64,000 nucleotides of DNA from Desulfatiglandales bacterium (lineage in GTDB: Bacteria; Desulfobacterota; DSM-4660; Desulfatiglandales; Desulfatiglandaceae): positions 4,480,001-4,544,000 of the forward strand of contig OY759599.1 in NCBI GenBank assembly GCA_963662465.1. Reading direction: 5' to 3'. The notes beneath the pieces were generated by a model. That model had not been told where the DNA came from and did not search any database. It worked only from the letters and a program-made list of their open reading frames with translations. The position numbers and the translations under genes are program-made. Below, in pieces: positions 8,618 through 29,334 of this stretch (its first letter is position 1; every line of letters starts with the position of its first letter).

Positions 8618-10051
8618 ATGGGAAGCACATGGATTGCTATTTTTCCGGAAATCATTCTGGCAACGGGAGGGCTTCTGATTTTCTGCACCGGCGCCTTCCT
8701 GCAACGTCGGCCCGGACCACTGCTTTTTTTCATGGCCCTGATCTTTTTGGGAAGCGCCATCGGGGCTTTTGCATCCCTTCCCATTTCCGGCATATGCCTG
8801 AACGGCATGCTGGATGGCGGCGGCTACGCCCGGCTTTTCAGTACACTGATTGCCGCCATCGCGTTCATATGTCTCCTTTTCTCTTCACGATACGCCGGTA
8901 ACCGGGGTTTTGAAAACGATGAATATTACGGCATTCTCCTTTTTGCCGTTCTCGGTATGGATCTGGCGGCCATAGCCGCCCACTGGCTCATCTTCTTTTT
9001 GGGCCTGGAACTTTTGTCCATTTCCCTCTATATCCTGATTACCATCCGCGGGGAGGATCCTTTTTTTCGAGAAGCGAGCCTCAAATACCTGATCACGGGC
9101 GCCGTGGCCGGTGCGTTCCTCGCCTTCGGCATCGGCCTCTGGTATGCGGGGACCGGATCGTTATCGGTGATCACCCATCTCGCATCCGGCGCCGAACGCG
9201 TAGACATCCCGCTTATGCCGGCGGCGCCGGCGTTTATCCTGGTGGGGATCGGCTTCAAAATCTCAATGGCCCCCTTTCATCTATGGACGTCGGATGTTTA
9301 TCAGGGCTCCCCCGCGCCGGTCACCGCATTTTTGGCCGCGGGATCAAAAGTGGCGATATTCGCTTTCCTCATCCGCTTTTGTTTTCACATGCAGGCCCCG
9401 CTCTGGGAGGCGTTTAAGCCGATCCTCTGGATAGGGGCCTTTCTGACCCTGATAGCGGGCACGCTGACCGCCATCAGTCAGTCCGACCTCAAACGCCTTC
9501 TGGCCTATTCCTCCGTGGCGCAGATGGGATATCTCCTCATGACGCTTCTGGCCGTGAAAATGGAAAGCGGACGCTTTGCCCTGGCCTTCTATCTGATGGT
9601 GTACGCGGCCATGGATCTGGGCGCCTTCGGGATCATCGCCTCGCTGTCCCACGAAAAAAAGGACCGCGACGCCCTTGAAGCGTATCAGGGTCTCGGTTAC
9701 ACTCACCCCTGGCGTTCCGCCATCCTCACCCTCTGCCTTCTTTCTCTGGCAGGGCTTCCCCCGACCGCGGGGTTCGTTGGGAAGGTAATCCTTTTTAAGG
9801 CGGTGCTTCAGGCGGGAGAACTGTCTCTTGCCGTCATTGCCATCGCCATGGCGGTGCTCTCCATATACCTGTATATGAAGGTGGTAATCACTCTTTACAT
9901 GCGACCTGGCGAGGCAGTCGGGCACGCCCCCGCAATGGGCTCTTATGAACGGATGGGCGGAGTTCTGATTCTCCTCTTTCTCCTGTGGGCGGGAATTGCT
10001 CCCTCGCCCTTGCTGACCCTTATTGCCAGCATTGTTCCTTCAGGAGGATAG
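8618..10051 (+). CDS. nuoN: NuoN
   Basis: EASLKYLITGA, FKISMAPFHLW, KRLLAYSSVAQMGY, LSLAGLPPTAGFVGK. Confidence 0.93.
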   Translation: MGSTWIAIFPEIILATGGLLIFCTGAFLQRRPGPLLFFMALIFLGSAIGAFASLPISGICLNGMLDGGGYARLFSTLIAAIAFICLLFSSRYAGNRGFENDEYYGILLFAVLGMDLAAIAAHWLIFFLGLELLSISLYILITIRGEDPFFREASLKYLITGAVAGAFLAFGIGLWYAGTGSLSVITHLASGAERVDIPLMPAAPAFILVGIGFKISMAPFHLWTSDVYQGSPAPVTAFLAAGSKVAIFAFLIRFCFHMQAPLWEAFKPILWIGAFLTLIAGTLTAISQSDLKRLLAYSSVAQMGYLLMTLLAVKMESGRFALAFYLMVYAAMDLGAFGIIASLSHEKKDRDALEAYQGLGYTHPWRSAILTLCLLSLAGLPPTAGFVGKVILFKAVLQAGELSLAVIAIAMAVLSIYLYMKVVITLYMRPGEAVGHAPAMGSYERMGGVLILLFLLWAGIAPSPLLTLIASIVPSGG

Positions 10052-10052
10052 A
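10011..10052 (+). repeat. 42-bp direct repeat, left copy (attL-like; the nuoN 3' end)
   Basis: tgctgacccttattgccagcattgttccttcaggaggataga; 41/42 identical to 27790-27831. Confidence 0.9.
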
Positions 10053-10072
10053 AGTTTCGCTGTCTAATCGAC

Positions 10073-10280
10073 GATATCACACTATTTGCATTGGTTGGGA
10101 GTTATCCCTGCAAACACAGGTTTACCAAGACCAATATACGTTGGAGGTATACCCAGCTGGTGTCATCCAAAAAACGGCCAGTTTAAGGCATCTCCCAACC
10201 CTCATTCCGCTCCCATGCCAACGATGATATCACAGGCATTCGGCTGCGAGAAATCGGTTGAGATATCCATTCCGACCGAA
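10073..10280 (+). repeat. Non-coding repeat block B, copy 1
   Basis: 10140-10266 aligns ungapped to 23230-23356 with 18 mismatches in 127 nt (counted by hand). Also similar to 20597-20730 and 15054-15150. Confidence 0.9.
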
Positions 10281-10451
10281 CAGCATTCTGCAATCAACAA
10301 AACTGGCGGGGAGGTGGTGACCCTGACCTTTTAAGCCACCTGACGATTGTTTATATCGTTGGCAGGCCAATCCTGTCAGCAATTTTGACCTTTGACCTTT
10401 CTCGTCTCTCCCCATAATTTTTAGCCAATCCGTCTTGTCTTGGCCATAAAT

Positions 10452-13400
10452 TTACTTCACATTGATCATTTCGGATTTCAAAGACCCGCTCGATGCCTTA
10501 ATGGTCGTTGGACCGGGGGCATCAATAATGGTCATATTGGGCGCCTGATGATCATATTCGTTTGAATCGTACCCCCCTTTGATCAAAATTGATCTGCCGC
10601 CGCTCGCGCTTAAGGACTCCTCATAGGTTCCGCCTTTGACCTTAATGACCGATCCGGTCACGGCATCATCGATGGCATCCTGGATTTTGCGGTAGCAGGG
10701 TGTTTTAGTTCCGCAGTCGCCATTGCTGCTGACGTAGAAAGTGCCGGAGTAGGTTGGGTTTGTTTCAGCACCAAAAACGCCTGAAACATAGATCTGATAA
10801 AAATGGTAACCGTCTTCAACCGGTATGGTCACAACCTTTTCCGTCTCGCCGTTTTCGAGTACTACAGTCCCGGCATAGCGACTGACAATTTCAGTTCCTG
10901 TGTTGCTCTCTATATTCATGGTTATCGTTACAAACACAGCCCCTGAGCTGCCCTGAACTCGATTAACAGGAACCGACACGGAGCGGTTTCCGTTATTGAC
11001 CTGCTCGACAGGTGTCCCCAGATTGACCGTACCCGCTGGGCCCTCTTTAATCCACCGGTAGCCTTTGGACTGCACGCCTTCCTGGCTTTCAATCCCGTTG
11101 GTGTTCACCGATTTGACCATCCATCTGTACTCCCCGGCCTCCGAAATCCAGTCTTTATAAATAAAGGTGCCGGCATTAACCGTGTTTAGGAACTGAAAAC
11201 CTGAACCGGCGTCCCGGTATATCCTGAAGCCGGAAAGTGTGTTGCTCTGAGGGGGATCCCATCTAAGTTCAACTGAATTTCCATCCTGGTAACATGTCAG
11301 CCCCGTCGGTGGCGCCGGCTTTCCATCATACAGTGCCGGTCCCGCATATACCGGTGCGGCGCTGTCCCCCAGAATACTGTATGCCGCAAGGCGATACCAA
11401 TATTGTTTTCCAGCCGTTACCTTCTTATCCAGGTAACCGGATTGGCAAAGATACTGCCCATTAAGAAGATCTTCCCATAGACCGCCTGAGGCCTCGCTCC
11501 TCTCCAGCTTCCAGAAGACGGTGGCAGGCCAGCTATCATCAAACAAAACCCGAATACCCTGATATTCCGCCTGCAATTGCAGATTCGCAGGTGTGACAAG
11601 TGGCAAACCATACTCCCTGGTCGCCTCTACCATCTGAATCGAATTGGACCAATCGCTTATCTCTCCGCCGGTATATACCGACCTGACTCTGTACCAGTAT
11701 GGCGCAGTCGGCGTCTCACCCGTCCAGTCATCGAGCCATACCGGCTGGGGATACCGTTGTTGGCCAATCAGAACAAAAGGGCCGTTTTCCGATTCACTTC
11801 TTTCTAAATCATAACCCGCAATATCCGGATAATTCGAAGGGGACCAGCGTAAGACCGTTTTCTTTGCCGCGGAATAGGCCAAAGCCTCGATCCTGTCGGG
11901 AGGAGCGGCAAAGGCATCTTCTGCAACATTCAATGTGGCGGATATTTGGTGACGAACAGAACGATTCGCCTCCATTAAAAAACCTTCCAGAAGATTGCTG
12001 CCGGCATGAAAAGCAAGAGATTCCGGCACAGGCACCTCAACAGTGTTGTTCCCTATTTCCCCATGATTGGTGATGAGCGTACCATTCAGCCTGATTTCCA
12101 GATAGTCACGGTTGATGGGACAATCCGTAGTGTAGAGAGGAGAATCATAACTAAGCCAGAGATCCGGAGTTCGAGTATGAATCTCACTACCATCGGCCGG
12201 GCTCCAGCGTGCCGAGAGGCCCATCCAGAGATTATTAATGGTATACCCTTCGGTGCCGGGAGTGGAAATATAAGCGTCGCTTCGGGCCATGTCGCCCACG
12301 GTACTGCTTCCTTCTGGCAGGGTCGCTTGTGCGGTTCCGCCTGCATCCAGAGATACCATCCCCTTAACGGGGGTAACCAGTATCTTGTCATCGGGGAACA
12401 AATTGACAACGGTATACGATTCCTGATTTGACAGGGAAGAGGTATCGGCATCTGCTGAGCGCAAAAGAGCGTTCTGAGGTGCACGACTGTCCCCGACCTT
12501 TTTGAGTATATAATTCGTGCCATTTTCGGCAGCTTTGTTGAACACCCAATTCGCCACGCTGCCAGAACCGGGTGCAACCACGTTAGCGATCGCCTCACTC
12601 AGACCATCAATAAGTACAACTTTGCCATATCCTCTAGGGTCATTCTGAACATTGTAAGCCAGATTTTTTAGCTTAAAAAAGATTGAAGAACGCTCTAAAA
12701 CAATACCCCCTTCGATTTTGCCTAAAACGATTCTGGTGCCCCACTGTGAGTCTGGGACCCCCACTGACTGGCCATTGCAAAAACGAACGGACAAAGGTCC
12801 ACCAATGACTTCAAGCGCATCTCCCGGAAAGAGCTTCTCATTTACCTCCAACTCTCGAGGGTCTATAAACCCATTTACTCTAGACATCAGCTTCACCACG
12901 GGATTAACTCTGGTGGCCCGGGCGAATGGAAGACTGACGAATGTGCCGAGGTTTCCGGATTTATTACCATCTTTAGCGCTAATCTTTATCTCACCGTTGA
13001 TGTTTCCGTAGGTATCGGTATCCGACGTCAATAGGGCCGTCATATTGAAATGGGCGTTTTTAAAATTGGGACCCCAATCTGTAAAAGCAAAATAAAACGG
13101 CCCGGCATCATCTATGGTCGCCGAGAAATTAGATACGTCCTTATATTTAACGTTTAGGCCGTCATTTCCAAATCCATCGATTTCCTTGACACTAATGCTA
13201 AGTTGCTGATCTTTATCGTAAGAAGAGGGAACGGTACCGGCATAGACCATTAACTGCTCTCCCATGATCAAATGATCATCGAAAGTTGCACTTTTATTCG
13301 GATCTTGATTGGGATGCGAATAATCTGTATAATTTACTAAACCGTTTATATTAAGTTTAAAGGTATATTTGTGCACCCATGGTTTCGAAGGATCAGGCGC

Positions 13401-13862
13401 AACTGGGCAAAGCGAATTGACTCCGACCTCAACTGCATAACTATACTCAGAGAGCGCTTCCCACTCATTTTTAATATCGTCTCCTGTTGGATTCAAAGTG
13501 AAGCTTTCTATTCCCCCACTTCCCTCTGGACCCGTGAATTCAGCTGTAACGGTTATCGTTATCTGAGGTCCTTTATCCGGGTCCTGTCCAAGTTCTCCGG
13601 GCTCAAAGGTCATTATGTGGTTATAAATATGCGCGCCTCCATAATTAATATCCGAAGACCAGTAGTGACTGGTGTCGGGCGTGACCTCAACAGTCAGGCT
13701 AACGTATCTGCCTTCTCCGCCTTCTAGGGTGTAGGTCAGAGCGCAAACAGCCTCAGGACGGAATAAAAAACACCCCTGTACAATGAAAAGAAGAAGAATG
13801 GAAATTAAGAATAGCGAAAAGACTTTTTCTGTTTGAGCATCGATCAACGGGTATGGTTTCAT
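10452..13862 (-). CDS. Large secreted protein with fibronectin type III-like repeats and a conserved C-terminal domain
   Basis: N-terminal hydrophobic signal-like segment. FN3-like units (TVLRWSPS...YWYRVRSV; PPTGL...VELRWDPP...YRWMVKSVN). C-terminal YVSSNGDCGTKTPCYRKIQDAIDDA. Confidence 0.8.
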   Translation of the reverse strand: MKPYPLIDAQTEKVFSLFLISILLLFIVQGCFLFRPEAVCALTYTLEGGEGRYVSLTVEVTPDTSHYWSSDINYGGAHIYNHIMTFEPGELGQDPDKGPQITITVTAEFTGPEGSGGIESFTLNPTGDDIKNEWEALSEYSYAVEVGVNSLCPVAPDPSKPWVHKYTFKLNINGLVNYTDYSHPNQDPNKSATFDDHLIMGEQLMVYAGTVPSSYDKDQQLSISVKEIDGFGNDGLNVKYKDVSNFSATIDDAGPFYFAFTDWGPNFKNAHFNMTALLTSDTDTYGNINGEIKISAKDGNKSGNLGTFVSLPFARATRVNPVVKLMSRVNGFIDPRELEVNEKLFPGDALEVIGGPLSVRFCNGQSVGVPDSQWGTRIVLGKIEGGIVLERSSIFFKLKNLAYNVQNDPRGYGKVVLIDGLSEAIANVVAPGSGSVANWVFNKAAENGTNYILKKVGDSRAPQNALLRSADADTSSLSNQESYTVVNLFPDDKILVTPVKGMVSLDAGGTAQATLPEGSSTVGDMARSDAYISTPGTEGYTINNLWMGLSARWSPADGSEIHTRTPDLWLSYDSPLYTTDCPINRDYLEIRLNGTLITNHGEIGNNTVEVPVPESLAFHAGSNLLEGFLMEANRSVRHQISATLNVAEDAFAAPPDRIEALAYSAAKKTVLRWSPSNYPDIAGYDLERSESENGPFVLIGQQRYPQPVWLDDWTGETPTAPYWYRVRSVYTGGEISDWSNSIQMVEATREYGLPLVTPANLQLQAEYQGIRVLFDDSWPATVFWKLERSEASGGLWEDLLNGQYLCQSGYLDKKVTAGKQYWYRLAAYSILGDSAAPVYAGPALYDGKPAPPTGLTCYQDGNSVELRWDPPQSNTLSGFRIYRDAGSGFQFLNTVNAGTFIYKDWISEAGEYRWMVKSVNTNGIESQEGVQSKGYRWIKEGPAGTVNLGTPVEQVNNGNRSVSVPVNRVQGSSGAVFVTITMNIESNTGTEIVSRYAGTVVLENGETEKVVTIPVEDGYHFYQIYVSGVFGAETNPTYSGTFYVSSNGDCGTKTPCYRKIQDAIDDAVTGSVIKVKGGTYEESLSASGGRSILIKGGYDSNEYDHQAPNMTIIDAPGPTTIKASSGSLKSEMINVK

Positions 13863-14689
13863 AATCCGATATATCCCCTCTGTTTGACTTTAGGCTACGC
13901 CTGTAAAAGTTATAATTACCTTGCCTCCTGAGGGGCAAACTTGAGTTGTCCGTATTGGCTTATTAATATTGTGGAGCTTCTGACCCTTGCGCCTCAGTTT
14001 CTTGGTATTTTACATATTTGCGTTTCATTTCTGTATCCAAACCAACAGCAACAACACACTATCTTCTAGCCCAATTAATTTCGGCAATAGGGTGCTACGC
14101 AAATTTTTCGTCCAGATGGTTGAAGCCGGCACATCTAGCAGGAAATTTTCAAGGAAAATTGGGCAATCCAGAGACTGCTGCCTCGAACACAAGCTGATCG
14201 GCTGAGTTAACGGCATTCTGACGAGGAATGGAATCACGAAACTTATTCAGGGGGGGACGAGTAAAGTTCTTTAGCTTTGGAAAGTTTGAGGTGAATGGAT
14301 TTGCAGATATACTGATGAAAGATATAAAACGATCAGTCGAAAAAACTTGGCAGGAATTTAACAACAAAAATATTTGATTGAAAGAATTATTGTCTTCGTG
14401 ATCAGGATAAGCAAAGCCAATAGTGACAATGGAAAATATGGGTATAAAAAAAAGTATTACCCGTTTATGACTAATATTCATTGTAAATTTCTATTTGAGA
14501 TGGATGAGACATAGGTTATCAGATTTTGGTTATAGATAATTATCTATTTCAGTCAAGGAGTTGTGTTGTATGTATTATGTTAATTAATCCAGGGTAACGC
14601 CTCGGCTGTGCCGGAGGTACAGTGAATTGATTTGCAAAAATTTTATCTTTCCGAAATCCAAACATTTGGGCATTTGGACACGCCCGGAA

Positions 14690-15170
14690 CCTGCCGCATG
14701 CCTTACTTATCCTTAAGACCCAGCAGATCACAAAAGCATGGATGAAGTTCTTATCACCCCTACATACAGAGGTCAATCAATTTGCCAACAAATCGTTTGC
14801 GGTCGGGGTTACGTGTATCATCTTTCACCGCAACGCCAAGAAAATCGTTCAAGGCTGACAGATCAATCTTACACTATTTCCCCATGAAATCAAACGAATG
14901 CTGCATATAGGAAGTCTTCACTTTTCGATTAACAGTCTGAAAAGGGCGCGACCACAATATGTAGTGGCATTGGGTAATAAGAGAAATGGCAAATTCAATC
15001 TTTACTCGGATGAGATATTGAACTCATATCACAACGTGGTCTTTGGTTGTGGTACGTTGGAGTAACCTGTAGGTCTTGCGTGATCCAAAACATGCATCTC
15101 TGGAACCTCAGTTTACCCCGTTCCCGATGATGATATCTCAAGTATCCGGCTTCCAAAAATTGGATCAAAC
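14690..15170 (+). repeat. Non-coding repeat, joined blocks A+B
   Basis: A part: ggttacgtgtatcatc...aaaatcgttcaaggctgacagatcaatcttacac (14807-14874). B part from catatagg (14904) through atgtagtggcattgg...tgagatattgaactcatatcacaac to gatgatatctca, colinear with 20453-20700. Confidence 0.85.
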
Positions 15171-15184
15171 GGATGTGCCAAGAA

Positions 15185-18100
15185 TTACTTCACGGTCAAC
15201 GTACTCCCATCCATCTTCCAGTATAACCCTGATGGGTCATAGGGATTGGAATAGAATTTCAGGGTGAATCCATATTGATTGCCATTGTACGAAACACAGT
15301 CCAAGGGGATACTCAGGTCTGTGCCAATTGGTATGCAATAAGTACCCGTTCCTGTCGTCAATGTTCCCATGACCAACTTCCAATAGTAGCCGGAGGGGTC
15401 ATCGGGATGGCGGTAGAAATCAAGCATAAAGCCGTATGGATTTCCATTATAATCGACACAATGAACATTGATGCCTAAACCAGCGCCAACTGCAAGACAA
15501 TCTGTATTTCCAGGTACAGTAACCGATGTTTGGTACGGTAGCGATAGAATCCCTTTGCGATCACGGGCAAAGACAGCTACGTTGTAAATCCCCTGAGTAG
15601 TAAATCCGTTATAAGTGCCACTGTAGCAGTCGTTTCCAACGGCAATCAAGTTGATCGTTGGCAGATCAGTTACGGGATTATCGGGAGACCCACTGGAATA
15701 GTTGGGGGCTTTGATGACTGCAAATACTTCCTGAATGCCATCCGCATCCACTACGTTTTTGGCTTGGATAAATGCGGATGTTTCACCTCCTAAAAGTGTT
15801 TGAGGCGCAGATACATCCTGAATGCTAGGAATATCACCTGCTGTTTTGGTTTCATTGCCAATCTTGATGATGTTAGCAATCTCTTGATCCGCCTTTTCGT
15901 TTCCCACGCCGTTAGCGTTGGCCTCAAGCAGTGGATTTTGTTTGTCGTTGTAGGTGGTCTTGACGCAGTTTTTGGCGATGACGAAGGAATCGTAGAAGGT
16001 GCTGCCGTTAAACAGCTGAGCGAAAAACTGGAAACCAAAGGATAAACTCCCGTCCACTTCAAAAATAGCGGGTTCATTTGGGGATGTGCTCGTGGCCAAG
16101 ATTCTCGTTTTTCCGGCGGGGGGAAGCAAATAGGAGACAAAGCTGCCGGAATGGCACCCATCGTAAAGGATGGTGATGAAATCAGTGATGCTTTGCTGTG
16201 CGGAATCCAGCCAGGAATCCAGAAGCGATGCCTCCAGCATTTCATATTCCCCCATACGAAATGTCCCTTCGCCCCCATGACCCACCATGTAAATAACCAG
16301 ACTGTCCGCATCAGACGCCCAGGTTTTAAGGGCGTACTCAAAATTAGCATTGGTTGCATCGCCATCAACGTCCGGGTAACCGTCGTTGTCCAGATCCACG
16401 TCCGTGTCGGAGGAGAGATAATATATGGTATCTCTTGTATAACCTTGGTATGAAAGTGCTCGGTAGGCATAGTTGGCACACATCTGAGTCGCATCCCAGA
16501 GGGTGTTGGTGGAGTATGGACCACTTCCGGCAACAATGATGGCTTTGTTGGTGGGGCCGGTAGTGAACGGTTTGAAAACCTTAACACGGTCGCAACCGGG
16601 ATCCGAAAAATTCAACTTGCCTTGCGAGTTTATAGCAAAATTATAGGACAGACCTAAATCTCCAGGCCCCTGACCTTCTGACCAGAGAAACTTTGAAATG
16701 AAGGTTCCATCAGATGAGAATACCTGCATACGTCTGAGGCTGAATTGGTCGTCCATGCCTATTAATTCAGGACAAAGCATATCCAAAACATAGATGCCCC
16801 CCGCGTTACCGATTGCAATATCCTTAACCTCTAGAAATTTCCCATCCCCAGCACCAAAGCTACCCCATTTGCTGATAAACTCCCCGGACGAAGTGAATTT
16901 TTGAATGCGAAAATTATTGGGATCTGTCACATAGACATTGTCTTCCGCGTCTAAAGCTATGGCGGCGCCGTGGACATCAAAGGCGAATTGACCGTCACCA
17001 GTTCCCGTACCTCCCCATTCGGTGACAAACTCTCCTGACGATGTAAACTTTATAATCCGTTCGTTCGAGCTAAATATATATACATTTCCAACGCTATCTG
17101 TTGCTATGGAACTTGCGTAAAAGGCGCCAATATCGGCCTGGTCCAACTTAAGAGACTCTCCTGACGATGTAAACTTTTGGATGCATCCGCTTGCCGCATA
17201 GACATTTCCAAAAACATCTATTGCTAGATCAAGAGGGTAATCGCCGCTAATGCTCCATTTAAGCAGGAACTTCCCTGAAGGCGTGAATTTTTGTACACGG
17301 CTATTTCCATATCCATAGTCAGCTACATAGACATTGTCAGCATTGTCTATTGCTATGCCAAGAGGATAATCAAATTGGCCATCTTCGATGCCTGCACTAG
17401 CCCACTTTGTCAAAAAATCACCTGTTGATGAGAACTTTTGGATTCGACTGTTCCCGAATTCAGCCACATAAACGTTTCCGGTATCATCTGTAGCCAAGCC
17501 CATGGCCCAATAAAATTCACCATCTCCGAAACCACCGCTCCCCCATTTGGTTATAAACTCTCCAGTGGATGTGAATTTTTGAATAAAGGACTCCTGAGAT
17601 ACATAAATGTTTCCCTCATTGTCTATTGCTATGCCCTTTACGTTATTGAGTTCGCCATCACCATAACCAAAGTTGCCCCATTTGGTAATAAATTCCCCGT
17701 TGGATGAAAATTTCTGTATTCGGGGGTTTATGGAATTGAGTGCAGATACATACCCATTATCAGCTACATACACATTGTTTTCATACATACCATTTGGTAA
17801 TAAATTCCCCGTTGGATGAAAATTTCATTCGGGGGTTTATGGAATTTGCAGATACATCATTATCAGCTACATACACATTGTTTTCAGCATCTACGGCAAT
17901 GCCCCACGGAGAACAGAATTCTCCGTCTCCGCTCCCTTCACTTCCCCATTTCGTGATAAAATCCCCTGAGGACGTAAATTTCTGGATGCGGTCGTTTCCG
18001 GCGTCGGCAACATACACGTTGCCCATATTATCTATAGCTATGGACTGAGGATAATCGAATTCCCCGTCACCGGTTCCATAACTGCCCCATTTGTTGATGA

Positions 18101-18344
18101 AAGTGCCCGATAGTGTAAATTTTTGGATACACTCATTATAAGTGTCCGCAACATAAACATTTCCAGAAGCATCTATCTCGACATCGCTGGGATTCTGAAA
18201 ATACCATGGCTGCTCCAGCACCGGCCACATCCGCTCAAATACGTATTCTTCCGCTGCTGAATTGCTAACAGAAATGATGCTTAGAAGCAGAAAACCCAAA
18301 AACAAGAAAACTGTGGATTGTCGATGATTGTTTCCGTATTTCAT
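15185..18344 (-). pseudogene. Secreted NHL-repeat beta-propeller plus peptidase C13/caspase-like (clan CD) protein, split at about 17785 by a duplication-associated frameshift
   Basis: Signal peptide, many IAID.GNVYVAD.RIQKF..G.F..KWG repeats, then NKAIIVAG...VGHGG...YDGCHSGSF. The two ORFs (197 aa and 867 aa) overlap at a ~100-bp duplicated segment. Confidence 0.85.
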
Positions 18345-18539
18345 TCTTCCATCCGTGAAAGTAGATTTTCTCAAAATTACACCACCACATGGTGATTCGT
18401 CACAAAAAAATGAACCTAATTTTCGATTTCTGCATTATCATATACAAACCTTGAACAGGGTGAAGAGTCAACAATGCGAAGATTATGTGAGTCATTGATA
18501 TATCGACTTGCAATCACAAGCAAATCAGAACGGCAAGAC

Positions 18540-18960
18540 CTTGTGAGCTGCCTTACACCCTTGGAAACAGCAGTTTCCTCGGACTAGAAAATATTTCAGC
18601 CGCCCCCTGCCTCACTTTCATGCCAAAAACCAAATATTATGGGAATCACAAAAGTTGAGATATCATAAAACTAGAACCCTGTGACTAACGCTGTAAGTTC
18701 TTCTGACACCTCAGGTTTGCCCGCAGTACAGGTTAATTGAGATAATCACCAGGATTCAACACCCTCAAAACCTTGTGATATCAATTACATATCTGTAAGT
18801 GTCCTCAGATTGCAGATTCTTAATCGAAAAATTTTACCACCACAACATATGGGGGTCAACCCATTTTCCCACTATCCGGTCACAGAAAAAGGTTACGTGC
18901 ATCAATCCTCACCCCAACACCACCAAAATCGTGCAAGAATGCCAGATCAATCTTACACCA
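18540..18960 (+). repeat. Non-coding repeat block A (longest copy)
   Basis: Anchors gagatatcat (18657), ccctcaaaaccttgtgatat (18763), ccacaacatatggggg (18839) and tacgtgcatcaatc are colinear and near-equally spaced with 22913, 23017, 23094 and 23149. Confidence 0.85.
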
Positions 18961-19059
18961 TCTGCTTCTGTAGGATAAAACATGATGCGGTAGATCGACA
19001 TTCCCCATGGGGTAAATCAAGTCGACCGCTGAAAATGTATGCAGTTTCCCTGCGAAATC

Positions 19060-19333
19060 CTAAACCGCCTCTTTCAGCTTCTTCCCTGCTTTAAATTTAA
19101 CGGCATTAGATGTCTTGATCTTGATCGGTTCTCCGGTACTCGGGTTTCGACCTTTCCGGGCTTTACTGTGGATTTTTGAGAATGTACCGAATCCAATCAC
19201 GGTTACTTTTCCATCCTTTTTCTTCAGCTCTTTCGTAATACTGTCGATAAATGAATTTAGCACCGCATTGGTAGCGGATTTGCTGATGTCTGCATCTTTA
19301 GCCATTTGCCCGACCAGTTCAGCTTTACCAATA
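19060..19333 (-). CDS. hup: HU-family DNA-binding protein (no canonical start at the expected position)
   Basis: KAELVGQMAKDADISKS...VTVIGFGTFS...ARKGRNPSTGEPIKI...VKFKAGKKLKEAV. Confidence 0.85.
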
Positions 19334-19469
19334 TGTAATATGTAGTAATCTTGACCGCCAACAACCTGACTCAAATTGAATATTTAACTCAGAAGTTGTA
19401 ACTTTAACCAATAGGATATGTTGAGGTCAATTCATTTTTTATTAACCCTCAAAAAACGGGAGGTGCACT

Positions 19470-20305
19470 ATGGAACTGTTGGAGGCCACGAATTTTTTTT
19501 TGATTATCAGAGAATGAATTCCAAAAAAAGCACATTGAAAAACTATGAGTTCGTTCTAACCAGATTCGAACACCATTTCGGCAACATTGAGTTGTCATCC
19601 GTAACCACAAAAAATGTCCTTTTTTTTCTCACAAAGATATCCAAAGAGACGAAGCAGTCAACTAAAAAACTCCGTTACTCCCTCCTGTCGACCTTTTTCA
19701 ATTTTATCAAGACCTCTTTCGACCCCAAAATTCAAAATCCTTGTGATTCCCCTACACTGAAGAACCTTTTCAAAGTCCAGAAACCGATCCATTGGAAGAT
19801 TTTGGAAAAAGACGTTGTGGATGAAATCATCTTCAGAACGGAAGACATCAGAAACCGTCTCATGCTCGAACTTATGGGACGTGGTGGCATGAGAGTAGGA
19901 GAAGTTCTGAAACTCACACCTGCTGACGTTGAAGACAGGAAGATATTCATCCGCGATCCCAAAAGCGGAAAAGAAATGGAGGTCGTTTTCATCCCCAAAA
20001 AAGTAGCTGACAGACTCAAGGAGTACATCCGAGAGAAAAGAATTCAGTCTGGTGAAAGAATTTTCCCTATAAGCTACTCCGCTGCGAGGATTGTTGTGAT
20101 GAAAGCCGGTAAGTTGGTTGGTGTCAGATTGAGGCCGCATGATCTGAGAAGGCATGCCGCAACTTTTGCCTCCCGGGCTGGAACTCCTTTGGAGATTGTC
20201 AGCAAGATCATCCTCCGCCATTCCAACCTGTCGACCACTCAAAGATATTTGGGAAAAGTCAGTGATATGGAGACCATGAGATGGATTGACAATATTCATG
20301 GATAA
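19470..20305 (+). CDS. Tyrosine recombinase/integrase (XerC/D-like); -1 frameshift in a T9 run just after the likely start
   Basis: Catalytic R (GMRVGE), K (PKSG), HxxR (PHDLRR), H (LRHS) and Y (TQRY). RBS ggaggt plus ATG at 19470 reads into the main frame only if the T run is 10 long. Confidence 0.9.
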
Positions 20306-20449
20306 AAGAGAAAAAGCCGGGTTGAGAGGCAAAACACCTCAGCCCGGAACCGTGAAGATTTGATCTGCCATCCTTTTCCATGCTGCACCAAAAAAAAGGG
20401 TCCCAGCCAGGTGCTTTCCCAGACCTCCGAGCTCCAGATCTGACAGCAT

Positions 20450-20730
20450 ATTCATATAGGTATTGTTCACTTTTGGATTAACAGCCTGAAAAGGACTCGA
20501 CCAGATGTAGTGGCATTGGATAATGAGAGAAATGGGAAATGCAATCTTGCTCGGATGTGATATGTGGTTCATATCACAACCCGGTAGTTGCCTGATATAC
20601 GTTGGAGATATACCCGGTCTTATGTCATCCAAAAAACTGTCAATTTCATGCGTCTCTCGACACTCCGAACAACCCCTCCCAATGATGATATCACAACCAT
20701 TCGACTGCGAGACATCTATGGTTGATATCA
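20450..20730 (+). repeat. Non-coding repeat block B (full copy) downstream of the integrase
   Basis: Contains TGTGATAT-gtggttc-ATATCACA (20556-20578) and tacgttggag...tgtcatccaaaaaac...atgatgatatcaca. It abuts the stop codon of the next gene. Confidence 0.88.
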
Positions 20731-22788
20731 TCTAACCACCAACGTGTTCATATCCATCTTCCAGTAGTACCCCGATGGGTCATAGGGGTTGGGGTAAAAC
20801 TGAAGCGTAAACCCATATTGTGTGCCGTTGTATGAAACACAATCCATGGGCATACTGAGGTCCGTTCCAATGGGTAAACAATATGAGCCTGTTCCAGTAG
20901 TCAAGGTGGGCATGACCAGTTTCCAATAAAAGCCAGAAAGATCGTCCGGATTGCGATAAAAATCGAAAACAAAGCCATACGAATTGCCGCTATATTCGGC
21001 ACAAGGGACATTGATACCTAAACTGGCACTGACAGATAGGCAATCCGTATCTACAGGCACGGTAACAGAAGTCTGATACGGTAAAGACAGGATTCCTTCT
21101 CCGTCACGGGCAAAAACCGTCACACTGTAGACCCCTTGAGAGGTAAACCCGTCATATGTGCCGCTGTAGCTGTTGTTTCCGACTGAAGTCAAAGTGATGG
21201 TAGGCAGATCGGTTACGGGGTTATCGGAAGAACCGCTGGAATAGTCCGGCGGTTTGATAACGGCAAAGACCTCTTGGATGCCATCTGCGTCAACAACATT
21301 CTGTGCATGGATAAATGCGGATGTGTCCCCTGCTGAAAGCGCCTGCGGTGCGGATACAGTCTGAATGCTGGGAATATCGGTCGCTGTTTTGGTCTCATTG
21401 CCGATCTTGATTGCATTTGCAATCTCTTGATCCGCCTTTTCATTTCCCACTCCGTTGCCGTTGGCCTCAAGCTGCGGATTTTGCTTATCCTCATAGGTGG
21501 CTTTGACGCAGTTCTTGGCGTCAACGAAAGATTTGTAGAAACTGGTGCCGTAAAACAGTTTGGAAAAAAACTGATACCCAAAAGATAGCTGGCCGTCCAC
21601 TTCAAAAATGGCGGGTTCATTGGGGGAGGTGCTCACCGCTACAATTCTCGTTTTGCCGGTCGGTGCAAGCAGATAAGACACAAAGCTTCCTGAACGACAA
21701 CCATCGTAAACCAGGGTCACGAATTCAGGAACACTTTCCTGCACAACATCCAGCCACGTGTCAAGCGCTGACGCTTCCAGAAGTTCGAATTCCCCCATCC
21801 GAAATGTGCCCTCACCTCCGTGGCCTACCATATAAATGAACAGACTGTCCGCATCGGCAGCCCAGGTTTTGATGGCGTACGCGAGATTGTCGTTGGTGGC
21901 ATCGCCATCCACGTCCGGGTATCCATCGTTGTTCAGATCCAGGTCGGTGCTGGCGGAAAGGTAGTAGATGTATTCTCCCGTGTACCCCTGGTAAGTCAGA
22001 GCACGGTGGGCATAGTTGGCGCACATTTGGGTTGCGTCCCAAAGTGTATTGGTGGCATATGGACCACTTCCGGCGATGATGATTGCCTTATTATTGAAGA
22101 CACTTGCATTCTCTTTCAAAACCTGTATGCGGTTATTGCCATTGTCAACAATGTATATTTTGCCATTGCCACTCACAGCAAGTCCAAATGGATTGTTCAC
22201 CAGCCCCGGATCGGATCCGAGTGCACACAATTCCGTTATAAACTGACCGGTGGAACTGAACTTCTGAATTCGGTCGTTACCATTGTCCGCCACATAGACG
22301 TTCCCTTCCGGGTCGATGGCAATTCCTCTAGGACTGTTAAACTGCCCATCGGCTGCGCCTTCACTTCCCCATTTAAGGATAAACTCACCCGAGGAACTGA
22401 ACTTCTGGATACGATCGTTATCAGTATCCGCCACATAGACGTTCCCTTCCGAGTCGATGGCGATTCCTTCAGGACTGTTAAACTGCCCATCGGCTGCGCC
22501 TTCACTTCCCCATTTAAGGATAAACTCACCCGAGGGACTGAACTTCTGAATTCGGTCGTTACCAGTATCCTCAACATAGAGGTTCCCTTCCGGGTCGATG
22601 GCAAAATCTAAAGGGCTACTAAAATACCACGGTTGATCCAGCACAGGCCACATGCGCTCAAAAACATATTTTTCCTCTGCTAACGATTTGGCAGGGAAAA
22701 TGGTCAAAAACACAAAACTCAATATCAAGGGAACAAAGATTTGACGCAAGTTAGACCGTTTCAATTCTTTCTCCTTTTCAGAATTCAT
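20728..22788 (-). CDS. Secreted NHL-repeat plus peptidase C13/caspase-like protein (paralog of 15185-18344)
   Basis: Signal peptide, EKYVFERMWPVLDQPWYF, about 4 NHL repeats, VGHGG...YDGCRSGSF dyad, and a doubled Cys-containing C-terminal repeat. Confidence 0.88.
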   Translation of the reverse strand: MNSEKEKELKRSNLRQIFVPLILSFVFLTIFPAKSLAEEKYVFERMWPVLDQPWYFSSPLDFAIDPEGNLYVEDTGNDRIQKFSPSGEFILKWGSEGAADGQFNSPEGIAIDSEGNVYVADTDNDRIQKFSSSGEFILKWGSEGAADGQFNSPRGIAIDPEGNVYVADNGNDRIQKFSSTGQFITELCALGSDPGLVNNPFGLAVSGNGKIYIVDNGNNRIQVLKENASVFNNKAIIIAGSGPYATNTLWDATQMCANYAHRALTYQGYTGEYIYYLSASTDLDLNNDGYPDVDGDATNDNLAYAIKTWAADADSLFIYMVGHGGEGTFRMGEFELLEASALDTWLDVVQESVPEFVTLVYDGCRSGSFVSYLLAPTGKTRIVAVSTSPNEPAIFEVDGQLSFGYQFFSKLFYGTSFYKSFVDAKNCVKATYEDKQNPQLEANGNGVGNEKADQEIANAIKIGNETKTATDIPSIQTVSAPQALSAGDTSAFIHAQNVVDADGIQEVFAVIKPPDYSSGSSDNPVTDLPTITLTSVGNNSYSGTYDGFTSQGVYSVTVFARDGEGILSLPYQTSVTVPVDTDCLSVSASLGINVPCAEYSGNSYGFVFDFYRNPDDLSGFYWKLVMPTLTTGTGSYCLPIGTDLSMPMDCVSYNGTQYGFTLQFYPNPYDPSGYYWKMDMNTLVVR

Positions 22789-22899
22789 TTACCAATCAAT
22801 ACACCGCACAGTATCTTTTCGTCACATTTGGAACAATCTCAATGTAAAACCCCTGCCGCTCTCTAACTCAAACTACCTGAACATAAGGATGTATCATCA

Positions 22900-23375
22900 G
22901 CCCAAAAAAACTGTGATATCATCAAATCCGAGGTCTTGAGTAAACGTTGAGATTGATCCCATCTCTCAGGGCCGGTCATGGTTGATATATATTGAGGTAT
23001 TCCCAAAAAATAGGCCCCCTCAAAATCTTGTGCTATGCTTCACATGTTCCTTCCTGCGCTTCAAACTCTGAAACCACTCTGGGAATTCTGACAACCACAA
23101 CATATTGGGGTCCACCAATTTCCCGGCTATCCGCACCCAGAACAAGAGTACGTGCATCAATCTTCACCCCGACATCATCAAAATTGTGCGAGGCTGACAG
23201 AACAATCATTGAAGTCGAGCATGAGATATGTTGGAGGTATACCCAGTTAGTGTCACCCAAAAAACGGCAACTTTCATGCATCTACCAACCCTCACTCCGC
23301 CCCCTTCTCAATGATGATATCACAGGCATTCGGCTGGGAGGAATCGTTTGTGATATTATTCCGGTCGGAACCGTG
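22900..23375 (+). repeat. Non-coding repeat, joined blocks A+B
   Basis: A at 22900-23210 matches 18645-18955; B at 23225-23375 matches 10135-10280. Confidence 0.9.
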
Positions 23376-23686
23376 GAATTGGCCTCATGAGATGTTTACA
23401 GCAGTTTGAATCATAATTTTGAGATTGGCTCATATCTGTAACTTTAAATCATTCCATATAGCTAAGTGATACCAACAATTTGCGCCTATCGCGGACGGGG
23501 AAATGTGGTCCTATTAGGGTTTACCTTTGCAACGGCTGTGGTGAAAAAGCGCCGTGCCGAATAGGGGTCCTCTGCTACAACCGGAAATATCGCAACCGCG
23601 GCGGCTCCATGACTCGGCAGCAGATAAGCGCTTACTTGAATCTGTCGGGTTCTCAAGACGCTGCCGTCAAACGATGATACAGCCCG

Positions 23687-25585
23687 TCAAGGTGTGATCC
23701 GCATTTCCGTAAGTGTCAAAGAGGAGCCCTCCTCCACACTGGGAGCCTGATTAAATACCGTTTTGCCGTCCTGATCCGCAAAGGTCCGACCCCAGTTTCC
23801 GCTGAAGGTCAGCTGCTTTGATCCTTTAACGCTTACGGTTTCCGAGTAGTTTCCTCCGGCAATGAATAGGGTGGACCCAGTAGAAGCCGCATCAACGGCC
23901 GCCTGAATGGTGGTGTAGCAGGGCAACTTGCCACCGCACTTTTTTTCGGTGTCGCTGCTGACGTAAAGGTGGTGCTGCGTCTGGCCCCCGCCGCCGCCCA
24001 AGTACCAGTCGAGCGTGGCGTTGTCGCCGAAGTCGTTGGGGCCCAGCGGGGCCGGGTTAACGCCGAGTATGGGAGGATCTCCCTTGGTTCCATAAAACCC
24101 CCACAGGTCCGTAGAGGGGTATAAATAGGCCGGTGCAACCTCCATCATGCGCATCAGTTCCAAATAGTAAGGATCCACCAAGTCATCGGCCGTTCGGCGA
24201 TCATCCTGGAGGTTGATCATGTCCTGACCTTTTAGAGCTCCGGTAAGTCCACCCGTTACCTGCCCCCCTTTGACCAGAATATAGAAATCATATGTGTCTT
24301 CACCGACAATATACGGCACATAACCGGACCACGCCGGGAGCTGCTTGTCATTCACGTATTCGTCCTTGTAGATAACCCCTGTAATGACGGCGTTGCCTAT
24401 GGCATAAAAAAGATTGGTACCCATCACATTGGTGAGCCATGTCGGCGCGGTCACAACATTGTTCACGCTGCTGGTCCAGATACATTCGAGCAGCCCCTGG
24501 TCTTCCGTCATTTCGTAGCCTTTCCCGCTGGCATTTGTCACGGCATTCCATATCTGTTCGCCCTGGCCTGACGCGTTATTTTTGTAAAGTGTAAAGTCCG
24601 TCAGCTTCATGGTGTATTTTCCAGAGACAGGATCCTTTTCAAAGGTAACGTATGTGGTCCAATGGTTTGAATCATGGTTCGTTCCCGTCTCGGGATCATT
24701 CTGGGGGGTGTTTCTGCCCACACGGAAACCCGCGGTAGTCCAGTTGGGTCCGGTACCCGGACTCCCGGGCTGCCATATATGGTTACATGCCTTGGTGGTG
24801 GCGATAATCTTATCTAGGGCACGGGTAAAACTGCCGATGCCCTTTGCCCAGCCATTGCCACTAGCTTGATGCAGCGTCCTCCACCCGATGGGATCGGTCG
24901 CACCCGGAAACGTGAGTTTCTTGGAAACGCCTCCTTCACCGGTGCTCAGCCAGGCAAACTGAGGTTGAGAGCAATAGGCTGCAATCACAGCACTCAAAGC
25001 GGCAGTGGATTTGCCCTGCGCTGCCCCAAAAACCCCTTTGGCGGATTTTTCAGGAAGGTTTGAAAACTCCATACGGGTGAGGAAATCCACCCGATCGATC
25101 CAACTCATGTCAAACGTCTGGCCTGCCGTGCCAAAAAAAGCCCACTCAAAATAGTTATATGGCATTGTCGTGGTCTCGTCAGACGGTTGCGTGGCCGGTG
25201 GCTCCGTATCGCTCAATATGGCGTAAAACCGCGTACCATTATTGGGGCGCATGATGCGTACCTTGCCCTGGTCGATTTTACTGAACTGTACAACGGCATA
25301 TGCACCTGGAACTGAAACTTGGTTTAAGGTTTTCCATACGCCGGATTCCTGATACTTCAACTCATAATCGGTCAACAGCCAGATTTGGTCATCTGTCGGA
25401 GTGGCGCCGTAAAACTCGCCCGGTCCAAAGTTGTTGTGCACGGTCATCTCGTAATAGGTGGTCGCACCGAATGCGCGGGGCGCCTGTGCCAGTGTCAACA
25501 TCAGCAATGCAGACAGGCAGGACAGAAAAATGGAAACCTTTCGTTGAAAAGCCGAATAAGACACAAAATCAAAGTACCATTTCAT
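23687..25585 (-). CDS. Secreted hypothetical protein with the same C-terminal domain as 10452-13862
   Basis: Signal-like N-terminus (LLMLTLAQAPRAFG), a GGGGG linker, then LYVSSDTEKKCGGKLPCYTTIQAAVDAASTGSTLFIAGGNYSE. Confidence 0.8.
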   Translation of the reverse strand: MKWYFDFVSYSAFQRKVSIFLSCLSALLMLTLAQAPRAFGATTYYEMTVHNNFGPGEFYGATPTDDQIWLLTDYELKYQESGVWKTLNQVSVPGAYAVVQFSKIDQGKVRIMRPNNGTRFYAILSDTEPPATQPSDETTTMPYNYFEWAFFGTAGQTFDMSWIDRVDFLTRMEFSNLPEKSAKGVFGAAQGKSTAALSAVIAAYCSQPQFAWLSTGEGGVSKKLTFPGATDPIGWRTLHQASGNGWAKGIGSFTRALDKIIATTKACNHIWQPGSPGTGPNWTTAGFRVGRNTPQNDPETGTNHDSNHWTTYVTFEKDPVSGKYTMKLTDFTLYKNNASGQGEQIWNAVTNASGKGYEMTEDQGLLECIWTSSVNNVVTAPTWLTNVMGTNLFYAIGNAVITGVIYKDEYVNDKQLPAWSGYVPYIVGEDTYDFYILVKGGQVTGGLTGALKGQDMINLQDDRRTADDLVDPYYLELMRMMEVAPAYLYPSTDLWGFYGTKGDPPILGVNPAPLGPNDFGDNATLDWYLGGGGGQTQHHLYVSSDTEKKCGGKLPCYTTIQAAVDAASTGSTLFIAGGNYSETVSVKGSKQLTFSGNWGRTFADQDGKTVFNQAPSVEEGSSLTLTEMRITP

Positions 25586-25798
25586 CTTCCCCTCCTCAAT
25601 TGCTTAATAGAAAATTCTATATCATAAATTTTCTGTTGACACAAAATAAAACTCACACGCTGGTGTAAACCACGGCCAGTAAAAACACCTTGTATCGCGC
25701 ATAGTTATATATAACTACCCCTGACTACCTTTGGCACTTGCATGAAGCCAAAAAAGGCAAACCAAAAAAAGCTGTGATAAGTTTGGAGAGGTAAGATA

Positions 25799-26740
25799 AT
25801 GCATGATCAAAATTTCAAAAATCTGATTCTGGACTATCCCGTTCAAGCACTGGAGTTTTTTGCCGGGGAAGAAGCGGGATCAGATTTATCCGAAGCCAGA
25901 ATACTCCCCGTACGACAAGAACAACTGAAGGAGCGGTTGGGGGATCGTTTCCGTGAGTTGGATACGCCGCTTTTGGTGGAATGGTCGGATGGCCGAAGGG
26001 AAGCCATTTTGTTTGTGGTCGAAGAAGAAACCAAAACCAGCGAGTTTTCAATATATCGTTTAGCCCGCTATTGTTTGGATTTGGCGGAATTGATGGAAAC
26101 GGACCGTGTGGTTCCCGTTGTGATTTTTTTGAGAACGGGAGACCATCGGACCTATCTGAGACTGGGCAGCAATTCATGCGCCTATTTGGAATTTCGATAT
26201 CTGATGTGCGAACTCAAAGGCTTGTCATCAGCCCGATATTATGACAGCGACAATATTGTTGCGCGGTTGAATCTTCCCAATATGGCCTATCCTCCAGAGG
26301 ATCGTCTTGAGATGTATCCGGCGGCGCAAACCGGCTTGGCCCGGCTTGAGACGAGCCCGGAAAAGCAACAAAAATATGCAGACTTCATCGACTTTTATGC
26401 CGATTTGAGCGAAGAGGAAGTCACCCTCTATCGCGATCGCTATCTAAGCGAGAAAGGAGACATTATGGGACTGGCAAGTGTACTAAGAAAAGAGGGACGA
26501 GATGAAGGCATTGAGCAGGGCATGCAGCAGGGAACTATGAAACTTCTGTCCCGTCTAATTGCGAAGCGTTTTCAGGTCAGCGCTGATTCTGTTCATCCGA
26601 TTTTTGCCGGCTTGACAACAGAGCAGCTTGAAGAATTGGGAGAGAGATTTTTCGAGGCTGAGAGTTTGGAAGAGATTCGAAATTGGGCGGAGGAGAAACT
26701 GTCGGCAAAAGCTCAAAGGACCGAGGCATCTGTGGGATGA
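25799..26740 (+). CDS. Rpn/YhgA-like PD-(D/E)XK nuclease ('putative transposase') with a DUF4351-like C-terminus
   Basis: HDQNFKNLI, ELDTPLLV, FVVEEET, VVPVVIF, EGRDEGIEQGMQQG...LEELGERFFEAESLEEI. Confidence 0.8.
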   Translation: MHDQNFKNLILDYPVQALEFFAGEEAGSDLSEARILPVRQEQLKERLGDRFRELDTPLLVEWSDGRREAILFVVEEETKTSEFSIYRLARYCLDLAELMETDRVVPVVIFLRTGDHRTYLRLGSNSCAYLEFRYLMCELKGLSSARYYDSDNIVARLNLPNMAYPPEDRLEMYPAAQTGLARLETSPEKQQKYADFIDFYADLSEEEVTLYRDRYLSEKGDIMGLASVLRKEGRDEGIEQGMQQGTMKLLSRLIAKRFQVSADSVHPIFAGLTTEQLEELGERFFEAESLEEIRNWAEEKLSAKAQRTEASVG

Positions 26741-27053
26741 CCATGAAATTCTAAAAAAGTCTCTTGCCTCGGTTATACAAGAGAAACGGGGACAGGCACA
26801 TCATGATTCTCAAACCTAATCAATGCCTGTGAGTTGGATGAAAACAGATTTATAAAATTACAAAAAGGTCTCGTGCAAAAAGGCGTAGAGTTGGAGGGGA
26901 CAGGGGTCGAAGGAAGGAAGAGTAGATTTCGCGGTAGGCGACCATCAGCTTCCAGTTGCTTGCCTACCTTTGGATTGGAACACAGAACCGGGGTGGATGG
27001 GAAAGATGGAGTTCAACTGGCAGAGCCTCTGACAACTGACCTCTGGCTGTTTA

Positions 27054-27310
27054 CGCCTATATGGAATTTCGATATCTGATGTGCAAACTCAAAGGCTTAT
27101 CATCGGCCCGATATTATGACAGCGACAACATTGTTGCGCGGTTAAATCTTCCCAATATGGCCTATCCTCTAAAGGACCGTCTTGAGATGTATCCGGCGGT
27201 GCAAACCGGCTTGGCCCAGCTTGAGACGAGTCCGGAAAAGCAACGAAAATATGCAGACTTCATCGACTTTTATGCCGATTTGAGCGAAGAGGAAGTCATG
27301 CTCTATCGCG
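27054..27310 (+). pseudogene. Near-identical partial duplicate of the rpn gene (26179-26435)
   Basis: EFRYLMCKLKGLSSARYYDSDNIVARLNLPNM...DLSEEEVMLYR, with a nucleotide-level match. Confidence 0.9.
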
Positions 27311-27311
27311 C

Positions 27312-27364
27312 GGCAAAATCCTGATATCCAGCCATACGAGTGCGTGTGTGTCAAGAATCAGCAT
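27312..27364 (-). pseudogene. vapC: VapC/PIN toxin 5' stub
   Basis: ATG at 27364 gives MLILDTHALVWLD, a PIN N-terminal motif. It overlaps the antitoxin end and is cut off by the rpn duplicate. Confidence 0.65.
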
Positions 27365-27789: not shown

Positions 27790-27831
27790 TGCTGACCCTT
27801 ATTGCCCGCATTGTTCCTTCAGGAGGATAGA
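27790..27831 (+). repeat. 42-bp direct repeat, right copy (attR-like)
   Basis: tgctgacccttattgcccgcattgttccttcaggaggataga. Confidence 0.9.
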
Positions 27832-27924
27832 CGCTTCTACCCTCCCACTACCAGCTGATGTACCAGAAATATTAACAGGTTTGTCTTCAAAAAAAATCGT
27901 AACATCGACGTAGGTCAGTGAGGC

Positions 27925-29124: not shown

Positions 29125-29334
29125 TTTATAACCTCCGTTCACATCATGTTTCAAACATCGTGTATTGGTTTCAAGAGATCCCATCCATGAAACTGATTGT
29201 TATTCCCGTCTTTTAAATTTCTTTACATTTTATTGCGTGCCCCTTCGTCCCGTGACGGCAATCCAAAGGGAAGGCAAATACAGACGCTGGGGCCCTGAGG
29301 GAAATTGTCGGTACCTATATAAAATTTTAGAGTA

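Follow-up and report, generated by a model that had tools for sequence, protein, structure and literature searches.

An array of genes for exported-type proteins, separated by long non-coding repeats and interrupted by a short tyrosine recombinase gene, lies in the 64,000-nt window analysed here (positions 4,480,001-4,544,000 of G000, the source genome, a Desulfatiglandales genome of one 8.16-Mb contig; coordinates are positions within this window unless given for another part of G000). With a probability of roughly 60%, judged from sequence, the array belongs to a gene-cassette system that is not an integron and is apparently undescribed, in which strand exchange would be catalysed by the recombinase. 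A literature search, whose coverage stopped short of subscription papers and supplements, found no description of such a system; the tyrosine recombinase classification tables of PMC8138268 may list the recombinase family.

In the proposed mechanism, a cassette would consist of a gene (at times several) between a 3' B arm and a 5' A arm. The arms would be diverged inverted repeats of about 250 bp that carry short nodes, several of which fit ATAT-N7-ATAT, and cassettes would be joined head to tail via linkers of 40-100 bp. The short, two-domain, XerA-like recombinase, placed within some linkers and produced at a low level by slippage on a homopolymer, would exchange strands at the nodes, so that cassettes are excised, moved and swapped among the arrays of the chromosome. 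Two nested end types are envisaged, an inner one (GTTGGAG...ATTGAG) and an outer one (ATATAGG...GTGCAT), apparently with one recombinase clade each. The array in the window is laid out as follows.

10140..10416 (+): B arm of the FN3 cassette; node GTTGGAG at 10140, modules b4, b5 and b6
10452..13862 (-): FN3 cargo gene; 1136 aa, exported-type, with an fn3 domain and a C-terminal domain in common with the 632-aa protein
14640..14812 (+): A arm of the FN3 cassette, degenerate and a3-a5-like, under the nhmmer threshold
14813..14911 (+): junction linker a6-a7; node GTGTAT, node GATCAAT, then core ATATAGG (14905)
14905..15160 (+): B arm of NHL cassette 1; core, b1, b2, b3, node GTTGGAG (15056) and a short b4
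15185..18374 (-): cargo gene for NHL-propeller and peptidase C13 protein 1, split by a duplication of 103 bp near 17755-17857
18588..18902 (+): A arm of NHL cassette 1; a1, a2, node ATTGAG (18736), a3, a4, a5 and node GTGCAT (18897); inverted homologue of the B arm
18897..19059 (+): left part of a junction linker (a6, a7h), interrupted by the HU-recombinase insert
19060..19374 (-): HU-family gene (PF00216) with no ribosome-binding site (RBS) or ATG of its own, probably decayed
19470..20305 (+): XerA-like tyrosine recombinase; RBS-ATG at 19470, T9 run at 19493-19501, R-K-H-R-H-Y intact
20314..20460 (+): B', a terminator-like hairpin and spacer up to core ATATAGG (20454), standing in place of a7
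20454..20729 (+): B arm of NHL cassette 2; b1, b2, b3, node GTTGGAG (20601), b4 and b5
20728..22788 (-): cargo gene for NHL-propeller and peptidase C13 protein 2, a paralogue of protein 1
22914..23157 (+): A arm of NHL cassette 2; a2, node ATTGAG (22991), a3, a5 and node GTGCAT (23152)
23152..23236 (+): short junction linker a6-a7x, up to node GTTGGAG (23230)
23230..23423 (+): B arm of the 632-aa cassette; b4, b5 and b6y
23687..25585 (-): 632-aa cargo gene; exported-type, with no Pfam or NCBIfam family

A weak a1-like stub, seen by eye and unscored by nhmmer, follows upstream of the 632-aa gene at about 25735-25785. An assembly artefact was rejected as the origin of this arrangement: contigs of sequencing run X1 cover most of the stretch with 0-1 differences. 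Additionally, a contig of run X4, from a separate study, crosses the linker, HU gene, recombinase and core with an identical T9 run.

The first-pass annotation, made from the window alone, had described this gene order, the strands and the positions of two repeat blocks, A and B, all of which were confirmed, as was its comparison of 10140-10266 with 23230-23356, where exactly 18 of 127 nt differ. The blocks themselves are real, but they are mosaics of 40-150-bp modules that switch at short nodes and not two uniform blocks, and they occur genome-wide rather than locally. Five intergenic stretches of the window matched 29 clusters across G000 by blastn; when 21 module types taken from the genome were used as a library, 258 matches in 91 runs were obtained, and nhmmer profiles gave 286 matches in 89 runs and 38 clusters, with 0 in the reversed genome. 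Module runs are sub-intervals of a single master order, a1-a7, core, b1-b6, with alternative segments, and this order is kept in 164 of 167 adjacent module pairs in G000 and in 192 of 194 in fetched loci of relatives. Module boundaries were placed at branch points by visual inspection, which makes counts at boundaries partly circular; pairwise junctions are unaffected. Among relatives, DNA matches were found in 7 of 40 genomes with one query and in 12 of 85 family genomes with another, and G073, which belongs to another genus, has shorter a6-a7 boundaries between single genes. No match to the plasmid sequences searched was obtained at E 1e-25.

The annotation's view that the blocks are non-coding and keep no reading frame also held. 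Codon periodicity was absent in 13 modules (p 0.21-0.90; p<0.001 for the integrase as positive control), only 4 of 166 indels in the blocks are multiples of 3, and 7 open reading frames (ORFs) on or near the blocks had no Pfam match under E 0.1. On these grounds a degenerate gene was rejected. A remnant of an insertion sequence (IS) or of a miniature inverted-repeat transposable element (MITE) was set aside along with it, there being no coding signature or protein-family match (IS-end databases lay outside the search). A structured RNA or hairpin site was likewise rejected: the blocks have no Rfam match, whole arms fold no better than shuffles (z -0.64 and 0.00), and module pairs have mean z values of +0.7 to -1.5, with 14 of 93 below -2. 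The attC control for this folding test was a weak one, as its 6 pattern matches gave z -0.7 to -2.0.

The same ATATAGG starts B copies and closes A copies, with differing flanks. Its 39 contexts fall into 10 left-flank and 12 right-flank classes, GTTGGAG has 19 left classes among 42 copies and ATTGAG has 13 right classes among 33, the counts for these two nodes being made with a 60% threshold over 35 nt that over-splits diverged alleles. Several right singletons of the core are alternative b1 alleles. Many right flanks are of this kind, and a reading of the core as an element's outer end was abandoned for this reason. GTTGGAG, ATTGAG and GTGCAT act like the core, in that unrelated flanks are joined at an identical nucleotide. 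Alignment starts are concentrated at the nodes (56 of 112 inside five 9-bp windows; null maximum, 29); the corresponding figure for alignment ends, 55 of 112, was discarded, 25 of these being due to a reference insertion. At least six switch points are present instead of a single A/B junction. GATCAAT and the b2/b3 node are likewise switch points, and the inner/outer scheme is a simplification. The linkage counts give an inner end pair (b4-b5 and a1-a2), an outer pair (b1-b2 and a4-a5) and linkers, and copy lineages appear decorrelated across the core, GTGCAT and GTTGGAG (lineage/Mantel test).

The two arms mirror each other. In the window, the A arm can be aligned over its full length with the reverse-complemented B arm (z 3.8, 0/300 shuffles), with nodes at mirror distances, whereas in direct orientation z is 0.5; A and B are thus diverged inverted repeats. 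ATAT-N7-ATAT occurs 21 times in G000 and 14 times in relatives, versus 0.8 in shuffles in each case, at five or more non-homologous nodes.

Units bounded by these nodes have changed neighbours between genomes. For instance, a unit with a CNNM gene is 99% identical in G000 and its relative G010, has a node at each end and different neighbours, and at the core is placed alongside B' in G000 and a7 in G010. Similarly, a pentapeptide-gene unit (94% identical; ends GTTGGAG and GTGCAT) and a beta-helix unit (94%; node end clear on one side) have different neighbours in the two genomes. Duplicated units with nodes at both ends are also present within single genomes (2229 bp, 97%, in G010; 2625 bp, 96%, in G073), and a duplicate pair in G000 diverges precisely after ATTGAG. 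Conversely, the stretch between one pair of chromosomal flanks measures 3.8 kb in G000, whereas in G010 it is about 37 kb long and carries other cargo. The proposal that B-gene-A behaves as a mobile unit is supported, with the same cargo at different sites and different cargo at the same site in a relative.

Cargo genes share orientation and tend to share destination. They were counted in G000 as ORFs of >=150 aa within 700 bp of runs of >=45 bits. B lies on the 3' side of the gene in 31 of 33 cases and A on the 5' side in 24 of 28; for the loci fetched from relatives, which were picked by their matches, the corresponding values are 54 of 66 and 23 of 29. A crude hydrophobicity test marked 28 of 43 cargo products as exported, versus 953 of 5336 ORFs in G000, and 38 of 70 in the relatives. 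Pfam families were found in 15 of 23 scanned G000 cargo proteins, and the families include Peptidase_S74 (5), Ig, caspase/Lcl, CNNM, pentapeptide, IPTL-CTERM, beta-helix, PKD/M23, PASTA and a beta-lactamase fold. The five proteins with C-terminal Peptidase_S74 (tail-fibre chaperone) all carry signal peptides (G000 1081451, 3860280, 6587536, 6589414 and 7890236). Relatives also carry sensor kinases and cyclase-like genes, as read from sequence without profiles, and many of the single-gene cargoes of G073 are, by the same reading, of the sensor-kinase type. The FN3 and 632-aa proteins, called unrelated in the annotation, have a C-terminal domain in common (37% over 78 aa, E 3e-11). NHL protease 1 is read as ORFs of 197 and 867 aa, which are split by the 103-bp duplication at 17755-17857, and this duplication is absent from a contig of run X3. 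As a separate observation, short leader-peptide-like genes with a common upstream segment follow the ATTGAG node at G000 6239545-6240060 and 7889380-7889620 and at locus L140; these presumably resemble Nif11 precursors.

The recombinase is present in four copies in G000 (89-100% identity), three of them with HU, and all are followed by B' and b1; in the window, HU, recombinase and B' stand in for the a7 linker segment. This does not fit the annotation's single local array gathered by a resident HU-integrase, as sites are genome-wide and the recombinase is itself inside a junction. The protein, of about 278 aa, has core-binding and catalytic domains only, with an invariant catalytic set R-K-H-x-x-R-H-Y, and full-length homologues measure 275-283 aa without an N-terminal extension. 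Its nearest solved structure is XerA, by sequence and by fold. About 40 residues of the genome's own IntI are absent from the query and from 6 homologues, in agreement with the earlier judgement that the enzyme is not an IntI. Scores in bits lie below the cut-offs for TIGR02249 (43; cut-off 265), NF040815 (123/220), XerC (60/335) and XerD (57/330), and none of the XerA, XerC or XerD equivalog cut-offs was reached. Homologues number 183 representative proteins below 1e-30, and related loci are assigned to Desulfobacteraceae, Desulfobacula and Desulfatiglandales. On viral contigs (L209-L214), the best recombinase identity was 44-47% and modules were present at 0 of 80 loci.

The core motif follows this recombinase clade. 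Of 11 recombinase loci at >=75% identity, 9 have ATATAG[GA] within the next 260 nt downstream (6 of 7 outside G000), compared with 2 of 32 recombinases of other clades and 42 of 1902 control genes. In the relative G004, recombinases of ~60% identity are followed by TATGTTGG, and the flank after TATGTTGG also follows an a2 end. Fetched loci of G004 have inner-type ends only (9, 14, 16 and 16 versus 0, 0 and 0), and an independent query with a6, a7 and b1 found no match in that genome. These observations suggest that each of two clades may be specific for its own end type.

The reading frame of the recombinase follows a pattern of its own. The start with its RBS-ATG at 19470 and the catalytic domain are in different frames, separated by the T9 run; the annotation had treated the integrase as needing repair. 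In fact, 31 of 35 recombinase loci are out of frame, 30 of them at runs of >=7 T or A and with shifts in both directions, and such a run is found in 0 of the 4 in-frame loci. The frameshift is a family trait and not damage. Because out-of-frame loci coincide with homopolymer runs and in-frame loci do not have them, the pattern suggests transcriptional slippage. As a consequence of this family-wide frameshift, gene callers truncate the recombinase and call it broken. The HU gene, which had been taken as the partner of the recombinase in one module, looks like decayed cargo. It lacks its own RBS and ATG in 3 of 3 G000 copies, unlike at L061, and copies in G004 and G006 are unaccompanied by the recombinase; for these reasons it may not be an obligatory partner.

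Several observations weigh against a cassette system driven by this enzyme. The annotation had asked whether the repeats recur with the integrase family and varied cargo; the core does follow the clade and the cargo does vary, but co-occurrence across genomes is weak, with the repeat in 12 of 85, the recombinase in 27 of 85 and both in 4, as counted in fragmented assemblies with at most 7 repeat candidates scored per genome. G010 has many sites and recombinase remnants only. No module lies <=900 bp from 23 of 23 recombinases under 75% identity, and the distant clades may act on other sites. Some duplicated stretches (L032/L122, L152) are not bounded by nodes, and homologues of the 632-aa gene (71-72%) occur in G010 and G004 without modules. 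The ATAT-N7-ATAT pattern was noticed post hoc, the longer pattern is not particular to spacer 7, and dyads overall are hardly enriched. The mirror signal is modest over random copy pairs. Lineages appear decorrelated inside b1, b4 and a2 too, as homologous exchange would produce, and such exchange therefore probably contributes to the mosaicism.

Products of recombination are also missing from the data at hand. Among assembled contigs, no circular or empty junction was seen, and the sequence examined contains no direct end-to-end a5-b1 joint; contig joints were not taken as circles because their sides are short and paralogous copies fit. The loci compared (L115/L121, L117/L122, L120/L140, L107/L147, L041, L090, L166 and L161) contain no clean empty target, and flank homology ends 100-1600 bp outside the outermost module. 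The relatives used here are 80-97% identical and rearranged. In G005 the flanks of one island are adjacent, yet the island ends are not nodes, and in further searches the flanks fell on unlinked contigs. Arrays may be carried within larger islands, which would be consistent with a 48-bp repeat at the nuoN end of the window:

10011..10058 (+): 48-bp direct repeat, left copy, at the nuoN 3' end; 94% identity to 27790-27837
27790..27837 (+): 48-bp direct repeat, right copy

These repeats could delimit a 17.8-kb island holding the array.

The missing products, the long inverted arms, which resemble transposon ends, and the mosaicism within modules would also be expected if the arms were relics of a tyrosine-recombinase transposon (A-HU-Int-B), with deleted copies spread in the manner of MITEs, composite units formed between them, and mosaics made by homologous recombination or gene conversion at the best-conserved patches. 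The many copies that are 65-85% alike, the decayed HU and the sites without an intact enzyme in G010 agree with such an origin. Nevertheless, non-homologous flanks meet at nodes of 6-9 nt, which are too short for homologous recombination, the placement of the gene between B and A with the recombinase in the linker is the reverse of a transposon with an internal transposase, and neither fixed polarity nor signal-peptide bias is expected from random composite capture. A transposon relic is thus considered unlikely.

The cassettes could also be real and be moved by another enzyme, such as XerC/D, the genome's IntI or a further recombinase, with the short recombinase as a passenger of the linker. 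G000 does encode at least 5 IntI-family genes above cut-off, an attC-like hairpin adjoins a module at G000 7889110, and the weak co-occurrence of repeat and recombinase would be in keeping with this. The nodes, on the other hand, have no attC-like folding, the core motif is specific to the recombinase clade and end type tracks clade in G004, and a different enzyme is accordingly judged improbable. Least of all are A and B likely to be shared promoter-side and terminator-side binding-site arrays of co-regulated exported proteins that spread by duplication: A is consistently upstream of the gene, a5 and b1 contain palindromic boxes (a 16-bp palindrome, CCACAA-N4-TWGTGG, which we take to resemble an NrdR box), and several cargo genes are paralogous (five Peptidase_S74 among 23 scanned), but identical boxes lie in B, past stop codons, the cargo comes from unrelated families, whole units move with ends at nodes, and the core follows recombinase genes.

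A cassette system is thus the preferred explanation, and it can be compared with known ones. It is integron-like, as the annotation had proposed, in so far as integrons and CALINs (clusters of attC sites lacking an integrase) also consist of single-gene units in fixed orientation and tandem arrays, with varied cargo order and a simple tyrosine recombinase. Three defining features of integrons are nevertheless missing. The recombinase has no IntI insertion; there is no attC hairpin, the sites being two-armed and hundreds of bases long with several nodes; and the enzyme sits mid-array inside a linker and not at the array head, with sites in 29-38 clusters. Additionally, the cassettes retain upstream DNA. 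The IntI insertion is called essential in a passage of PMC8138268. Contact between the two kinds of cassette was observed at G000 7889100-7889170, where a toxin-antitoxin-like gene pair is followed by an attC-like hairpin that abuts a module, so that integron cassettes touch this system.

Xer-type dif sites have an 11-6-11 layout; here the spacer is 7 wherever a dyad is visible, at five or more nodes. The pdif sites are XerC/XerD sites of 28 bp on which host XerC/D acts. In Acinetobacter, gene modules between short Xer-type pdif sites are thought to be shuffled into arrays (PMC9771954). The present enzyme, whose nearest structure is XerA, recalls these modules. Unlike them, the system has its own mobile recombinase in place of host XerC/D, is chromosomal with no plasmid match, and has long mirrored arms. 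Integrative elements of the lambda type likewise have long sites, in which repeated motifs surround a short core, and a nucleoid-protein gene is nearby in the window, but the present recombinase has no arm-binding domain, no single attB was found in the loci compared, and HU is decayed and occurs elsewhere without the recombinase.

Tyrosine-recombinase transposons (Tn554, RIT, Tn916 ends) share inverted ends that flank cargo, mobilisation of non-autonomous units in trans and genome-wide spread, and mobile insertion cassettes (MIC) and integron mobilization units (IMU) are composite or non-autonomous cassettes of comparable kind. In contrast to such transposons, the enzyme here lies outside the inverted arms, in the linker, the switch points are nested, and a single short enzyme occurs without a trio or helpers. 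The Rci shufflon, which inverts coding segments in place, also combines a single recombinase with several short sites; the present sites lie between genes and delimit complete ones at tens of loci, and units move or duplicate rather than invert. Rci is mentioned in PMC8138268, and neighbouring literature covers GInts (PMC5385486) and Prochlorococcus integrative elements (preprint 10.1101/2020.12.28.424599).

Integrons serve as the standard model for gene capture in bacteria, and the programs that detect them seek IntI and attC; a system of the present kind, if real, would therefore escape them. It would also account for how large surface proteins and sensor genes turn over in sulfate reducers of sediments. 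A more specific proposal, offered tentatively, is a gene-capture platform of an undescribed class in Desulfobacterota, in which a slippage-controlled, junction-nested, Xer-like recombinase would act on ordered, related but distinct core sites, two clades would each own a nested end pair, and genes for exported proteins and sensors would be shuffled among dozens of arrays. If the nodes are heterospecific, the system could provide a natural multi-site tool for cassette exchange, a natural counterpart of exchange with lox variants. Its parts can be tested: the recombinase is 278 aa long, the nodes are defined, and the ends of the 2-3-kb cassettes are known.

Further observations concern the surroundings of the modules. 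Group II intron-like remnants, identified by eye, lie beside modules at G000 2868132-2869438, about 6582300 and 7892100-7892560. A 24-kb module-rich island of G000 is bounded by a duplicated gene end (3833736-3834947 and 3858683-3859642), and in G010 a recombinase remnant adjoins an orthologue of that gene. Three very large tandem NHL-type genes in G010 (L128, 5165-19984) share an upstream repeat of ~200 bp that no module matches.

Within the window, a DUF4351 gene and a 94% identical fragment occupy 25799-27324, with more copies across the genome, and three related methyltransferase-like genes (31479-32522, about 42100 and about 45600) have stretches 77-90% alike. In G010 and G007 the nuoN 3' end is repeated 2-6 kb downstream, with different genes in between, and this gene end may be an insertion hotspot; nuoN and pfk of relatives show no synteny with the window. 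The pfk gene at 27836-29184 is 95-98% identical to G004 and G006 copies in other contexts. Its 3' end of 80 bp matches a segment found after b6y elsewhere, and the pfk gene may be one more cassette.

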